Assembly: GCA_948543815.1 (NCBI GenBank) | Contig: CAOVHW010000004.1 | Coordinates: 10,079 to 74,078, forward strand | Source: an uncultured Eubacteriales bacterium | GTDB lineage: Bacteria; Bacillota; Clostridia; Lachnospirales; CAMVHY01 | DNA length: 64,000 nucleotides | Reading direction: 5' to 3' | Shown here: positions 53,549 to 60,601 of the stretch, in pieces | How positions within the stretch are numbered: the stretch's first letter is position 1 | How the letters are laid out: every line of letters starts with the position of its first letter | Translations under genes and position numbers: made by a program | Notes under the pieces: model-generated | The model's database searches: none | The model's input: the letters and a program-made list of their open reading frames with translations, nothing else | Told to the model about the DNA's origin: nothing

Positions 53549-55660
53549 TTATATATCTGAATATTTTTCTGTTCTTTCTGAATATTTATATTGATTTGGT
53601 TTACCGTTGCCTTTATAAATTTCATTCGTTTGTTTAGTTTTATCTGATTTATTTTTTTCTGTGGAAATTTTCTTTTTTGATAAATTATGCAGATTTTTTC
53701 TTGATTGCAAATATTCATTAATGAATAGCCAACCAAAAGCAATACCGGCACCGATAGTTAAAATTAATCCTGCAGCAATAGATGACAATATTTCAAGTCC
53801 AAGCAATACAAACGGTGGAAAAAATAATGATATTAAGAGTGCTAATGATATTGCAGCTATTATAAATGCTATAGGTGATATTACTAAAAATATTTTGCTT
53901 CTTTTAGTTTCTTCTCTTTTTTTTAGAATTTTATATTCACATTTTTTCATAGAATCATAAGCATCAAATGTTTCTTGGTTATTTGCAAAAGCATTTGATA
54001 TAGAATCTACAATATTATCTAATTCTTCAGGATATTGTTGAAAAACAGAAGCAATAAAATTTAGTTTTTCCAAATCAAGCTCATCTAAAGAATTTTTTAA
54101 AAAATCTTCTTGTTCTTGTGAGAAATTATGATTGTTGCTTGATACTACTAATGAGCAAATTCCTTTTGCAATTTCTTTTTTGTCATAATTTTTAGTATGA
54201 TAATTAAAATTTGATGAATTAAGATTAGCAATATAATCAAATTTAGAATTATCATCCTGACTTATTGCTATTTCAATCAATAATTTATTGCTTAGTAAAA
54301 GTTTATCAATTTCATTTTCTTTTGTTGGATTTATTTTAGAAAAAAATTTCACTAATGAATAACAATGTTTTCTTGTGGCATTTCCAAAATTTTCAAAATA
54401 AACATAAGGTTTGTAATCCAAATAATTTGTGAACATAAATTTATCAATTCGCATTATAGCTGAGTAATATTTTGAAATTTTTATGTTGGAAATTAATTGT
54501 TCGTAATCGTTGCAATCAGCAAATTCATTTGGCATGAATATAAAAGCAAATAGTAAATCATTTATTTTTTCCGGATTTTCTAAGACGTAGCGTTTAAATT
54601 CATCTGAACGAAATTTTTCTCTAGCTTTGTTATAAATTGGTGAATTTGAATTTAGGTGGAAACGCATAAGATTTTGCAGAATAATCGAATTTTCAAGCCA
54701 AATTTTCATATAAAAATTTTTTGTTAATTCATTAGGTTGCTCATTACTTTCAAAAAAAATTCTATCAAAATGACAAGTTATAAATCTTGATTCCAAATAA
54801 TTTGTAGCGTAATAAAAATCTTCAAAGTACTCATGTTCAGAACTAATGAATTCAAAAAGACTAAATGTTTGTTCTATATTATCTTCAGTGTATTTTTTTT
54901 CAAGAATTTCTCTCTTGGAAATTTCTTCTTCAATACTAAGTGTTCCGTGAGCTGTAAAGTTGTCTTTTGTTTGAACATATATAATAGAAAATTTTTCAAA
55001 ATCAATATCTCTTGACATTTCTTTAATATTTTTTCCCTTACTTGATAAATAATAAGATCCTTGAGAGGTTTGTGGGAAACAATCATTTATGTAAGGAATT
55101 TTTTCTATTTCGGTATTCCAGAATTCCAAATACTTTTTTTTAAATTCTTCAAGCATTGGTATATATTTTTCATTTTTTTTGAGATTTTTTATATAAGTTT
55201 CAGGATTTCTAGAAGTAAACATTTCTTGTACTAATTTATTAAAATCATTAACTTTTTCATTATCAATATAAAATGATAAATTGAAATGTAAATAATCAAG
55301 TATACTTATATTTATAGAAATATTCATAACTTCAAATCGGAAATAGAAAAATTCATTTAGCATATCCTTCATATTTTTTTGGTTTAAGATTCGATTAATT
55401 TTTTTAAAATTATCTGAAGAAGGATTTGCAAAAATAGGTCTAAGTACATCAACAAGAAAATGTAGATCAAATTTTTCATCTTTTTTGAATATAGAGAAAT
55501 TTTTATCCAAACAATCTACCAAATAAAATATTGTTCTCATGAAAAGCCACTCAGCATCTTTGATTTGTTTGTCGATTTGTTCATATTCAGATGTATTTTG
55601 TTGCATGTTTTTCCGGCATTGTACCAAATCAAAAAAATCAATATTTTGTGGCTCATTCAT
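53549..55660 (-). CDS. Orphan tail-anchored protein of about 703 aa. Function unknown.
   Basis: Long ORF. I prefer the ATG at 55660 (MNEPQNIDFF), 9 nt after GGAG, which itself directly follows the cysS stop. A 57-aa hydrophobic block (about 53723..53893, IFLVISPIAFIIAAISLALLISLFFPPFVLLGLEILSSIAAGLILTIGAGIAFGWLF) is followed by a 57-aa Lys-rich tail. Confidence 0.85.
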   Translation of the reverse strand: MNEPQNIDFFDLVQCRKNMQQNTSEYEQIDKQIKDAEWLFMRTIFYLVDCLDKNFSIFKKDEKFDLHFLVDVLRPIFANPSSDNFKKINRILNQKNMKDMLNEFFYFRFEVMNISINISILDYLHFNLSFYIDNEKVNDFNKLVQEMFTSRNPETYIKNLKKNEKYIPMLEEFKKKYLEFWNTEIEKIPYINDCFPQTSQGSYYLSSKGKNIKEMSRDIDFEKFSIIYVQTKDNFTAHGTLSIEEEISKREILEKKYTEDNIEQTFSLFEFISSEHEYFEDFYYATNYLESRFITCHFDRIFFESNEQPNELTKNFYMKIWLENSIILQNLMRFHLNSNSPIYNKAREKFRSDEFKRYVLENPEKINDLLFAFIFMPNEFADCNDYEQLISNIKISKYYSAIMRIDKFMFTNYLDYKPYVYFENFGNATRKHCYSLVKFFSKINPTKENEIDKLLLSNKLLIEIAISQDDNSKFDYIANLNSSNFNYHTKNYDKKEIAKGICSLVVSSNNHNFSQEQEDFLKNSLDELDLEKLNFIASVFQQYPEELDNIVDSISNAFANNQETFDAYDSMKKCEYKILKKREETKRSKIFLVISPIAFIIAAISLALLISLFFPPFVLLGLEILSSIAAGLILTIGAGIAFGWLFINEYLQSRKNLHNLSKKKISTEKNKSDKTKQTNEIYKGNGKPNQYKYSERTEKYSDI

Positions 55661-55672
55661 GATCAACATCTC

Positions 55673-58213: not shown

Positions 58214-60601
58214 ATGAGCCAAGAAAACATTAGCAAAAAAGAAAAAGCTATTCGAAAAGCTGGCAAAGAAATTGTTCAAAACATTATTCAAGAAGTTACG
58301 CAAGAAATTCAACAAGAGGATGCAAGAGAAGTTGTTGCTCAAATTTTTGCTAAAGCAGATTCACTTCAAGGTCTTCAAGAATTAAATGAACAAGAAACAA
58401 AAGCACAAAGAAAAACAAGGTTTATGATGACAAAATTTATATATAAAGCAGAGTTTTTTATTGATGCGGTTTTTTCAGGAACTGCGGAAATGGGTTTGCT
58501 AGACGGTGAAGTAACAGAAAAATGTGTAGATATTACAAATGTGTTTAAAAATGTTATGCCTTATTTACAAACTTTTGTTGAATTTACTAAATATGTATGC
58601 ATAAAAAAGTTAACTTTTAATAATTCAAACGAAATGTTTAAAGCTTTTTTTGATTATCTGATTGAAGAACTAAGTGCACAGGATTTACGGTTTATTGATA
58701 TTGATAAAGAAAAATTAACAATGAAATTTAATCAATTTTATGGATGCCTAGATGAATTGACGTTAGAGCAGAATAGAAACAAATTTGAAAAATTTCAAAA
58801 CGCATTAACTTCATTTTTTATAAAAATATTGAATGAAAAAACTTTTTATCATTTTAATATTGATGGTTCTATTCAAAATTTAGCGATGAATTGTGCTGCA
58901 GTATCTTTTCCGCATCATTTTTATAAAGAAACAGGACGAAGGATTTGTATGATAGGCACAGCAAAAGAAAAATTTTGTTTACTTGTGCCTGAGAATGAAC
59001 AAGAATATTGGCTTAGTTTAGCTAAGCAAGAAATTTTCACCCAAAAACCTTATTATAATAAAACTTCTTTGCAATATCAGAAAGAAACTTCATCAGAATT
59101 TGAAGTATTGCCATATTCAACAGCAATTGAAATGTACATTTCTAAGCATTTTAAACCTGAATTTTCTATTGATTATATTTTAAATCTTACTAAATCATCG
59201 ACTGAAGATAGTGAAGCTGTAAAATATGTGAAGGAAGCTATAAGAGTAATTTGGTTAGGAAGATATCTTGAAAATTTAGCGATAGTTTATATGTTCGATC
59301 AATCTTTAATTGGGAAAGATGTAGATGTAGATACAATAGATTTTTGGCGTACAGTTTTTGAAAATACACATCTTGAAATATCTGATTACTTACTTATTAT
59401 TTTAAATAACAATAATAGTTGTTTTAATGAAGTTAAAGATGTTTTTCACAATAAAAATTTCAGGCAATATCTTATTGGGAATAAAGATTTGATTGAAAAT
59501 TTAATTATATTAGCTTCATTTGAACCTGACCGATTTTTAGAATTTTCGAGAGAAATAATTAATACTAATAGTTTGGGAACTTTTACAAATTTTGTTTTTG
59601 CTGAAAAAATTTCCAATGAAGTTTTTAATTTTAAACAAAACTGTAAATGGTTTAATGAAAATGATTTTTCTACAAAAATTAAACAAGAAATTTTAATAAT
59701 ACCGCATAAACGAATTTTACGTCCATTTATTGATAAATGTAAAACTTATGAGGAATTAGTTGTAGTTTATTCATTATGGCAAGAAACTAATTTTTTGAAT
59801 CAGTATTGGTTAATGCCTAAGATTACAGCGGAAGATTTGACTGCACTTGCAGAAATATTAAATGATGATATTGAAAACAAAACAAAAATAAAATTAATTT
59901 ATAGTTTATGGCCAAATTTTGCTGAAGAAAATTGGTTTGCAAATAATAAACTTGAACTTGATTTCGTTTTCTGTTTCAAAAATATAAGCACGCGACAAGC
60001 TCGTAATATTATGCAAAAATTTAAAAATTGGAATGTCCCGCCAAATGTTAAAGAAAGATTTGTAAAGAACTTGAAGGATTTGAACTCGCAAGATTTAGAA
60101 ATAGTTGAAGATTTATTTTTAGAAAATCAAAATTTTGATTTTATTGCAACAATAATTGAAGCAAAGTTAAAATATTCTGAGATTGATATGCAAAAATTTA
60201 AGATTAAATCTTTTAAAAATGAAATTTTGCAAGATAAATTTTTTAATTCTGCTGAAGGTATTCGCTTTTTATATGATTTTAAATTTGGTAACAGTGAAGT
60301 AGCTAAAAAATTTTTATTAAATTCTCTTGGAATTATGTATGAAAATTTAAAAAGTTATACCGCTATTGCTGTAAGTTTGTTTGGATTAGGTGCAGTTTCA
60401 TCTGTTGCATTGGTAACGCTGAAATTGTTGTGGAATATGCAAAAAACAAACAATTTAGATCTTGATGAAATTATTGAAAAAAATAATCTTGGGACTGAAT
60501 ATGATAAAATATCGTCGAGTTTAGATTCAGAAAATAATAAAAATGAAACACCTATTTTAGAAGCATTACGTGAGTTTAGAACACAAGAAAATGTAAAATG
60601 A
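58214..60601 (+). CDS. Orphan 795-aa tail-anchored protein, apparent paralog of the 706-aa orphan
   Basis: Long ORF with AGGTGA upstream. It has a single C-terminal TM segment (AIAVSLFGLGAVSSVALVTLKLLW, about 60356..60433) followed by a 56-aa polar tail. FHNKNFRQYLIGNKDLIENLIILASFEPDRF aligns with FRSDEFKRYVLENPEKINDLLFAFIFMPNEF in the 706-aa protein. Confidence 0.85.
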   Translation: MSQENISKKEKAIRKAGKEIVQNIIQEVTQEIQQEDAREVVAQIFAKADSLQGLQELNEQETKAQRKTRFMMTKFIYKAEFFIDAVFSGTAEMGLLDGEVTEKCVDITNVFKNVMPYLQTFVEFTKYVCIKKLTFNNSNEMFKAFFDYLIEELSAQDLRFIDIDKEKLTMKFNQFYGCLDELTLEQNRNKFEKFQNALTSFFIKILNEKTFYHFNIDGSIQNLAMNCAAVSFPHHFYKETGRRICMIGTAKEKFCLLVPENEQEYWLSLAKQEIFTQKPYYNKTSLQYQKETSSEFEVLPYSTAIEMYISKHFKPEFSIDYILNLTKSSTEDSEAVKYVKEAIRVIWLGRYLENLAIVYMFDQSLIGKDVDVDTIDFWRTVFENTHLEISDYLLIILNNNNSCFNEVKDVFHNKNFRQYLIGNKDLIENLIILASFEPDRFLEFSREIINTNSLGTFTNFVFAEKISNEVFNFKQNCKWFNENDFSTKIKQEILIIPHKRILRPFIDKCKTYEELVVVYSLWQETNFLNQYWLMPKITAEDLTALAEILNDDIENKTKIKLIYSLWPNFAEENWFANNKLELDFVFCFKNISTRQARNIMQKFKNWNVPPNVKERFVKNLKDLNSQDLEIVEDLFLENQNFDFIATIIEAKLKYSEIDMQKFKIKSFKNEILQDKFFNSAEGIRFLYDFKFGNSEVAKKFLLNSLGIMYENLKSYTAIAVSLFGLGAVSSVALVTLKLLWNMQKTNNLDLDEIIEKNNLGTEYDKISSSLDSENNKNETPILEALREFRTQENVK

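Follow-up and report, generated by a model that had tools for sequence, protein, structure and literature searches.

Two lineage-restricted orphan proteins with predicted C-terminal membrane anchors on either side of trpS-cysS in a low-GC member of the Clostridia

Among reduced, AT-rich, host-associated bacteria, large orphan proteins that are lineage-specific and evolve fast form a general category. Two such proteins, first read as 706 and 795 amino acids (aa) long and called the 706 and 795 proteins below, were investigated in a stretch of 64,000 nucleotides (nt) from an uncultured Eubacteriales bacterium (contig CAOVHW010000004.1); this whole stretch, with a base composition of ~27% GC, is referred to as the window, and the two genes lie in it on opposite strands on either side of trpS-cysS. 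From sequence comparison we conclude that the two proteins are old, distant paralogs which share a helical, probably non-catalytic domain, and with somewhat better than even confidence they are read here as cytoplasm-facing, membrane-tethered, non-enzymatic helical proteins, that is, lineage-restricted paralogs flanking trpS-cysS with modular anchors. They represent a very narrow new family of a known general kind, that of lineage-specific, fast-evolving, C-terminally anchored membrane proteins. Like the large orphans of this general category, they have a narrow range, no family match, a high ratio of non-synonymous to synonymous substitution rates (dN/dS), mosaic alleles, a paralog expansion (in lineage L009) and housekeeping neighbours; unlike them, they keep a stable position at trpS-cysS, possess a core under purifying selection in two old paralogs and switch at the C-terminus between a hairpin and a soluble extension.

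Tail-anchored membrane proteins (TAMPs) carry a transmembrane domain at the very C-terminus, which leaves the ribosome only after termination (PMC6794478), and under the strict definition this transmembrane domain is single (PMC6794478; PMC3087755). The 706 and 795 proteins resemble TAMPs (Escherichia coli DjlC, Flk and TssL, the Streptomyces SCO candidates and Gram-positive SecE) in having no N-terminal signal and a C-terminal hydrophobic segment for attachment; as in TAMPs, the large N-terminal domain is expected to be cytoplasmic, and the charges around the single span of the 795 protein show a weak N-in/C-out bias. The ribosomal tunnel holds about 30–40 residues. Unlike in TAMPs, each protein continues for 55 residues beyond its hydrophobic block, which would make co-translational emergence possible; there are two spans in the 706 protein, against one in the 795 protein, and the N-terminal domains of both are without known relatives. 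A first reading of the window, made from the sequence alone (the sequence-only reading), had termed both proteins tail-anchored; with these 55 residues in both and two lobes in the 706 protein, the term does not apply in its strict sense.

The second comparison is with the Inc proteins, type III secretion substrates specific to the phylum Chlamydiae (PMC3048545), which have a bilobed hydrophobic domain of ~40–60 residues and little conservation outside the clade (PMC3048545, PMC3656976). The 706 protein resembles Inc proteins in its long bilobed hydrophobic domain with a tight turn, with both flanks predicted on the same side of the membrane, and in being little conserved outside its clade. 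Unlike in Inc proteins, the hairpin is C-terminal and follows a domain of ~590 aa, the 795 protein has one span, many relatives have none, the organism is of the spore-forming Clostridium type and the sequences are not similar; type III secretion genes were not found in the window. The sequence-only reading had offered the Inc comparison as an analogy only, and it is just that, a resemblance in anchor architecture alone.

Homology and conserved position of the two families

The coding sequences and the regions in which they match are as follows.

53549..55660, minus strand: coding sequence of the '706-aa' orphan; product most likely 703 aa from ATG 55660, with a longer open reading frame (ORF) 53549..55669 from ATG 55669
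58214..60601, plus strand: coding sequence of the 795-aa orphan (ORF)
54518..55390, minus strand: region of the 706 protein (aa 94–384) homologous to the 795 family by hhalign; best-conserved core aa 282–385 at 54515..54826 (alignment A4)
58607..59539, plus strand: region of the 795 protein (aa 132–442) homologous to the 706 family by hhalign and BLASTP; core aa 347–443 at 59252..59542 (alignment A4)

The placement of two orphans on opposite strands around trpS-cysS, as first read, was confirmed by the ORFs at 53549..55669 (minus) and 58214..60601 (plus) and by the Pfam assignments of CysS and TrpS.

Three alignments were constructed: A1 comprised 10 sequences of the 706 family, down to 33% identity, A2 comprised six sequences of the 795 family, including the 26%-identical syntenic orthologue from L009, and A4 was a joint alignment of the core. 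When A1 and A2 were compared with hhalign, they matched with 93.3% probability (E=2.7e-7) over 280 collinear columns, whereas A1 and A2 against ten other window proteins, all other orphans included, which served as controls of matched composition, gave at most 0.4% probability (E at least 0.13). Four cross-family BLAST matches fell on the same core, namely 706 against 795 directly, 706 against an 892-aa protein of L009, 795 against P0014, and 795 against the 1460-aa protein of L009, and the match thus persisted when either protein was replaced by a 26–34%-identical orthologue. It is because of the profile–profile match and the cross-family matches on one core that paralogy is concluded, the pairwise evidence alone being marginal; in this form the shared, alignable core proposed by the sequence-only reading was upheld.

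The marginal pairwise evidence leaves room for the view that the two proteins are not homologous and that the core is a by-product of the shared composition, rich in Lys, Asn, Ile and Phe, of proteins from an AT-rich genome. BLASTP of 706 against 795 returned one high-scoring segment pair, with just 21% identity over 99 aa (E=1e-3 in a 36-protein database), raw Smith–Waterman alignment reached only z=4.6 over shuffles (Gumbel p ~0.002), other Lys/Asn-rich orphans of the window attained similar raw scores, and no member of the 795 family was recovered at database-wide thresholds with a HMMER profile built for the 706 family. However, the composition-adjusted E value of the BLASTP match was 5e-5, the core was still matched after substitution of divergent orthologues on either side, the profiles aligned collinearly with each other and not with the ten other proteins of the same genome, and the aromatic positions align in A4, so that a compositional origin appears very unlikely.

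The core comprises ~120 residues within the ~280 that are shared, and is characterized by an aromatic/aliphatic pattern (YLE..FD, T..F(Y/W), LN, F(R/H)(S/N)..F..Y and P(N/D).F). Tyr, Phe, Asn and Leu positions were invariant in A4, and an Asp and a Thr were the only polar near-invariant residues; the Cys-His of the CHFD motif of the 706 family was not kept in the 795 family.

No family in Pfam, NCBIfam or PADLOC was matched above threshold by the two proteins or by six of their relatives (0 families with PADLOC), and sequence-profile searches of PDB with A1 and A2 gave no match at E≤1. An AlphaFold2 model of the 706 protein, made with A1, had an all-helical N-terminal domain, with means over 10-residue blocks of the predicted local distance difference test score (pLDDT) of ~75–96 at aa 280–400; Foldseek found nothing for this model in PDB or BFVD at E≤0.001 (TM-scores ~0.1). 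Single sub-threshold Pfam matches to DUF7944, DUF973 and ETRAMP, the last two on the hydrophobic block, were not consistent across members and were rejected.

We attach almost no probability to the core being a degenerate domain of the protein tyrosine phosphatase (PTP) type or another enzymatic domain, since its weak profile match to receptor-type PTPs in PDB (sequence E=8e-4 to 6e-3, via T..DFWR.(V/I)(W/F)EN) had a per-domain E of 0.47–0.49 over only 34 residues, the sequence-level value being a sum over two tandem PTP domains, and since there was no Pfam Y_phosphatase match even at E≤1, inspection of A1 and A4 by eye revealed no conserved C(X)5R (no pattern search was made), Asp and Thr were the sole polar near-invariant residues, and the core is predicted to be all-helical, PTPs being alpha/beta proteins. 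Both families (54700–54800, minus strand; 59330–59420, plus strand) contain a motif, T..(D/N)F(W/Y)(R/M).(V/I)(W/F)EN, that resembles the T..DFWRM.WE of PTPs, which was judged a coincidence.

The sequence-only reading had also proposed aligning the two proteins with the giant, 472-aa and 656-aa orphans of the window. Pairwise and profile alignment detected no kinship: the 706 and 795 proteins showed no similarity to the 3319- and 1063-aa giants or to the 472- and 656-aa orphans, either in all-against-all BLASTP or by hhalign (at most 0.4% probability). The 1063-aa (1662–4853, minus strand) and 3319-aa (6073–16032, minus strand) orphans are paralogs of one another (34% identity over ~1000 aa, E=6e-121), and neither had a Pfam match. 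On the minus strand, 555 codons without a stop extend from position 1665 as far as the left window edge. This frame differs from that of the 1063-aa ORF, which ends at 1662, and has a weak collinear similarity (E=0.02) to aa 1408–1493 of the 3319-aa giant. The second giant may accordingly exceed 1063 aa, as one frameshifted gene or as two separate genes, and its C-terminus would then fall beyond the window.

Both families are very narrowly distributed, being confined to a single uncultured group of low-GC, gut-type Clostridia. A word-indexed search of 5.8 billion proteins retrieved only four proteins related to the 795 protein, none of them below 78% identity, and 10 related to the 706 protein; a profile search with A1 of 1.84 billion cluster representatives retrieved 13 clusters, and the same search with A2 added only fragments. 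No relatives of either family were found in GTDB species representatives or JGI metagenomes, nor by tblastn in 50,697 phage and 72,556 plasmid records. One public protein, P0025 (410 aa, with UvrD-helicase Pfam domains), is 81% identical to 15% of the 795 protein; a chimeric contig or an error of gene calling is the probable explanation.

The order of a 795-like gene, divergent from trpS-cysS followed by a 706-like gene, was kept in the close strains (L003–L008, L091–L094) and in the distant lineages L009 and L095, and L010 retained part of it (cysS followed by a 706-like gene). CysS of the distant lineages was 78–82% identical to that of the window, compared with 26–34% for the orphans. This comparison showed that the family has, as far as sequence and gene order record it, occupied both sides of trpS-cysS since before the split of lineages whose CysS proteins are now 78–82% identical. 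In L009 two 706-family genes, encoding 930 and 1460 aa, lie in tandem downstream of cysS (L009 7329–14649). No 795-like gene was present next to trpS in L096. Its place upstream of trpS (L096 4600–5940) is taken by an SSB gene together with a 151-aa ORF, which makes the left boundary of the block a rearrangement point.

Hydrophobic blocks and exchangeable C-termini

The C-terminal features of the two proteins are given below.

53717..53905, minus strand: bilobed hydrophobic block of the 706 protein, aa 589–651, with an FFPPF turn; predicted transmembrane hairpin
53552..53716, minus strand: Lys/Asn-rich 55-aa tail of the 706 protein (by composition)
60356..60433, plus strand: single hydrophobic span of the 795 protein, aa 715–740, IAVSLFGLGAVSSVALVTL (by Kyte–Doolittle scan and Hessa-type sum)
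60434..60598, plus strand: Asn/Glu-rich 55-aa tail of the 795 protein (by composition)

In a Kyte–Doolittle scan each protein had exactly one hydrophobic block, these being the only segments above 1.6 (maxima of 2.8 in the 706 and 2.15 in the 795 protein), and neither had an N-terminal hydrophobic segment or signal sequence; both blocks end exactly 55 aa before the C-terminus, in agreement with the sequence-only reading. The block of the 706 protein (IFLVISPIAFIIAAISLALLISLFFPPFVLLGLEILSSIAAGLILTIGAGIAFGWLFI) is 63 aa long, was described before as 57 aa, and does have the two lobes, the Pro-Pro and the Glu then noted, with Lys/Arg-rich flanks on both sides. The 795 span is single, of ~22–26 aa, and the 706 block corresponds to two spans. 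The tails of both proteins, described before as Lys/Asn-rich, are rich in Lys, Asn, Ser and Glu (12 Lys and six Asn among the 55 residues of the 706 tail; nine Asn, eight Glu and five Lys among those of the 795 tail), and the 706 tail terminates in the conserved motif GNGKPNQYKYSDRT.EYSDM.

Insertion-energy sums of the Hessa type, compared with the best 19-mer of each of six soluble window proteins, were −2.1 and −0.5 kcal/mol for lobes 1 and 2 of the 706 block and +0.5 kcal/mol for the 795 span, the soluble controls being at +6.5 kcal/mol or above. The flanks of the 706 hairpin contain nine and five Lys/Arg residues (net charge +6 and +4), and because of these basic flanks on either side a hairpin with both ends cytoplasmic is predicted by the positive-inside rule. 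The 795 span, flanked by net charges of +1 and −2, is weakly consistent with an N-in/C-out orientation.

At least three and probably four C-terminally anchored orphans had been proposed for the window. Three could be verified, the 3319-, 706- and 795-aa proteins, whereas for the proposed fourth, the second giant, the C-terminus probably lies outside the window; the 1063-, 1603-, 656- and 472-aa orphans had no hydrophobic segment in the Kyte–Doolittle scan. In the 3319-aa protein, a bilobed hydrophobic block with an ALP..G turn occupies aa 3198–3252 and is followed by 67 aa up to the C-terminus. The likeness of this anchor to that of the 706 protein, which the sequence-only reading had noted, stands for the architecture but not for the sequence (BLAST E=0.16–0.2, not significant), and the C-terminal anchor modules of the 706, 795 and 3319 proteins and of P0018 had no significant mutual similarity.

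Of the 795 family, only the allele in the window and P0001 and P0002 possessed the span; P0003, P0004 and the orthologues of L009 and L095 were without it. The hairpin of the 706 family was found in the close clade, in the L096 copy (57% identical) and in the distant P0018/L095 copy, and its FPP turn was kept in L096 and, as CFPP, in P0018/L095. P0012–P0016, P0019 and both 706-family copies of L009 had no anchor and instead possessed long soluble helical extensions, with a common C-terminal GG....LP motif in the L009 copies, P0013, P0015, P0016 and P0019. On the sequences compared, the predicted anchor was thus shown to be an exchangeable C-terminal module and not a family trait.

Two of the hairpin-bearing copies are interrupted. 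In L096 (9700–10420) the 706-family gene contains a frameshift within an A-rich tract of low complexity that immediately precedes the hairpin module, so that the hairpin is encoded in a different frame; this contig recurred in five samples, and the frameshift could reflect a true pseudogene, slippage in the tract or an assembly error of a systematic kind. In L095 (7098–9125) the gene is called as three consecutive ORFs of 133, 174 and 374 aa (P0021, P0022 and P0018), the last of which carries the bilobed hydrophobic block with the CFPP turn. The hairpin and the C-terminal motif PNQYKYSDRT.EYSDM were conserved down to 57% overall identity.

Substitution rates and competing explanations

Evolutionary rates were estimated against strains with ~97% nucleotide identity in the flanks. 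The dN/dS was 0.62–0.67 for the 706 gene and 0.44–0.62 for the 795 gene, compared with 0.04–0.15 for cysS and trpS, and the lowest values within the 706 gene, 0.16–0.23, were those of the shared core. Nucleotide identity was 96–99% in the neighbouring genes, 82–87% within the 706 gene and 85% in the tail of the 795 gene, and dS along the 706 gene ranged in a mosaic from 0.03 to 0.43, which suggests allelic recombination. Positive selection was considered and rejected, as windows with dN/dS >1 held only 1–4 synonymous changes and were not significant. The ORFs of both orphans were intact in all close strains, and the probability that a frame of 703 codons is open by chance at this base composition is ~1e-27. 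By these sequence measures both are real genes, with a constrained core in hypervariable surroundings, purifying selection being clear for the shared core only, and hotspots of divergence within the species; the frameshifted L096 and split L095 copies indicate that the 706-family gene is dispensable in some lineages.

In the reading preferred here, the N-terminal domain would be cytoplasmic and, in the clade of the window, tethered to the cell membrane by the C-terminal anchor, the large domain being expected to stay in the cytoplasm because there is no signal peptide. The 703/706-aa protein would form a transmembrane hairpin with an FPP turn, its Lys/Arg-rich flanks and tyrosine-rich C-terminal tail cytoplasmic, and the 795-aa protein would have a single N-in/C-out span with its 55-aa tail outside; the anchors would have been acquired or retained in this clade. 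The 703-aa gene would probably be transcribed, and perhaps translationally coupled, with trpS-cysS, and the 795 gene read divergently from the same intergenic region as trpS. As there is no catalytic signature and the core consists mainly of conserved aromatic and aliphatic positions, a role as a non-enzymatic scaffold or adaptor is inferred, with the core as a folded helical binding or scaffold module.

A number of points weigh against this reading. The homology was established from shallow alignments of 10 and six sequences; the 706 model had a mean pLDDT of 56.9 and was poor in its C-terminal third, beyond aa 468, and the AlphaFold model of the 795 protein (pLDDT 36) was unusable. The topology is predicted solely from hydropathy and the positive-inside rule, and the 795 span is only moderately hydrophobic, with weak flanking charges. 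The scaffold or adaptor role is proposed from the absence of a catalytic motif and of an enzyme family match, and a dN/dS of ~0.65 together with the frameshifted L096 and split L095 copies implies that the 706-family gene can be lost and is not essential.

The last of these points would be expected if both genes were weakly constrained or decaying lineage-specific ORFs, whose similarity and anchors are leftovers of an old duplication. Their dN/dS of 0.44–0.67 is about ten times that of the neighbouring genes, one copy is frameshifted in five samples and another is split into three ORFs, L096 is without the 795-like gene beside trpS, and only 13 clusters were found among 1.84 billion representative proteins. 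Nevertheless, ORFs of 2.1–2.4 kb have stayed open in every close strain of a 27% GC genome, the shared core is constrained, position and orientation have been kept across lineages with CysS 78–82% identical, the hairpin and the C-terminal tyrosine-containing motif persist at 57% identity, and the genes have good ribosome-binding sites and terminators. Decay is therefore considered unlikely.

Somewhat less support was found for exported effectors directed at a host or an envelope, which would travel by an unrecognised route and insert the hairpin into a target membrane as in Inc proteins, their variability reflecting an arms race against a host, a phage or competitors. The bilobed block of 57–63 aa, the within-species divergence hotspots with mosaic dS and dN/dS of 0.4–0.7, the modular C-termini and the mixture of housekeeping genes with many large orphans, as in host-dependent bacteria, would all fit such effectors. 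On the other hand, neither protein has a signal peptide and the window contains no secretion-system gene; the organism is a spore-former of the Clostridium type (spoIIIA operon) and not a chlamydia; the Lys/Arg-rich stretches bordering the hairpin at either end are in keeping with ordinary insertion into the bacterium's own membrane; the genes occupy a vertically inherited, syntenic place in an aminoacyl-tRNA synthetase operon, with no phage or plasmid relatives found; and many family members are without any hydrophobic segment. We regard export as decidedly improbable.

A bolder extension, put forward here as a long shot, is that both families and the other large orphans belong to a hypervariable, modular, membrane-tethered set at an interface under antagonistic selection in a spore-forming gut Clostridium with a reduced genome, which would either remodel or coat the cell's own membrane in an unusual cell cycle or be delivered by an unrecognised route into another membrane, with an Inc-like hairpin of independent origin in the Bacillota, the core being a new fold or domain family.

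If the preferred reading of membrane-tethered scaffold proteins is true, the two proteins would define an undescribed helical domain family, with no match in Pfam, NCBIfam or PDB, in which one N-terminal module is paired either with a membrane hairpin or with a long soluble extension. The flanks of trpS-cysS represent a stable position at which a low-GC Clostridia lineage keeps two hypervariable genes, and the gene pair is a handy strain marker and a candidate for a lineage trait under rapid or diversifying change. The practical value is small today; the pair is a modest curiosity and not a new kind of system.

Start codon, operon signals and neighbouring genes

The remaining features of the locus are listed here.

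53504..53541, both strands: bidirectional terminator-like hairpin with a 16-bp stem, 8 nt past the 706 stop codon
55670..55674, minus strand: Shine–Dalgarno sequence AGGAG of the 706/703 gene, which includes the final two bases of the stop codon of cysS, TAG (55673..55675)
55673..57058, minus strand: cysS, 461 aa from ATG 57058; the ORF reaches TTG 57091; Pfam tRNA-synt_1e, E=1e-131
57094..58074, minus strand: trpS, 326 aa; Pfam tRNA-synt_1b, E=1e-72; first gene of a putative trpS-cysS-706 operon
58075..58213, strand not applicable: divergent intergenic region of 139 nt between trpS and the 795 gene
58142–58170, plus strand: promoter-like site TTGTGA-17-TATAAT (consensus match only)
60646..60669, plus strand: terminator-like hairpin 3' of the 795 stop codon (sequence scan)

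The junction between cysS and the 706 gene reads AAT CAA TAG GAG ATG TTG ATC ATG AAT GAG. The AGGAG has zero spacing to ATG 55669 and a spacing of 9 nt to ATG 55660, all 706-family orthologues start with MNEP or MSEN, and public gene callers use the 703-aa form, including on a 137-kb contig. On account of the Shine–Dalgarno spacing, the orthologue starts and the public gene calls, the product is most likely 703 aa long with its start at ATG 55660, so that the first ATG, from which the sequence-only reading had counted 706 aa, probably lies 9 nt too far upstream. The same reading had the ribosome-binding site start immediately after the cysS stop codon; the gene does abut cysS, but the AGGAG overlaps the TAG and leaves no spacing to ATG 55669.

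Co-transcription of the 703-aa gene with trpS-cysS, as previously suggested, is likely: the gene abuts cysS, no terminator-like hairpin was seen between the two, a strong terminator (the 16-bp stem) follows the 706 gene, and the gap from cysS to the orphan is short (11–46 nt) across all related lineages. The 461-aa form of CysS is the one called on public contigs. The 795 gene has a GGTG ribosome-binding site 10 nt upstream of its ATG, and a protein identical to its product was found on 17 public contigs. No T-box or other leader RNA family reached the Rfam gathering score upstream of trpS.

Elsewhere in the window, the large orphans (1063, 3319, 1603, 656 and 472 aa) are scattered among housekeeping genes, which include ffh, leuS, uppS-cdsA-dxr-rseP, guaB, ftsEX-pcsB, a Mur ligase gene, a two-component system, the spoIIIA operon and rpoB. 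The presence of the spoIIIAA-AD sporulation operon and the affinities of CysS, whose best relatives are from Clostridia (the closest being 62% identical among the GTDB species-representative matches listed, and 78–82% identical on related metagenome contigs), identify the organism as a spore-forming, low-GC member of the Clostridia.

Between the gene for an SDF transporter and the 706 gene, a 39-aa ORF (MFLVRTLLSEGRLIIMNDNKNDKYTEEANSSDKKNKNSK; 53380–53499, plus strand) is called on every related contig and is followed directly by the bidirectional hairpin at 53504–53541. One and the same product is encoded by this ORF in the window, L003 and L091, despite a difference of 17% in the adjoining 706 protein. 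A 1013-aa multi-span membrane protein (30399–33440, plus strand) matches the PMT, PMT_2 and PMT_4TMC glycosyltransferase domains in its C-terminal half, and its N-terminal ~600 aa contain further hydrophobic segments with no family match. On other contigs of this organism, an orphan of more than 1499 aa lies downstream of rpoC, and rpoC itself is present as two overlapping ORFs (219 and 975 aa) at L003 16431–19975 and L004 12082–15626 and as a single gene of 1191 aa at L005 11925–15500.

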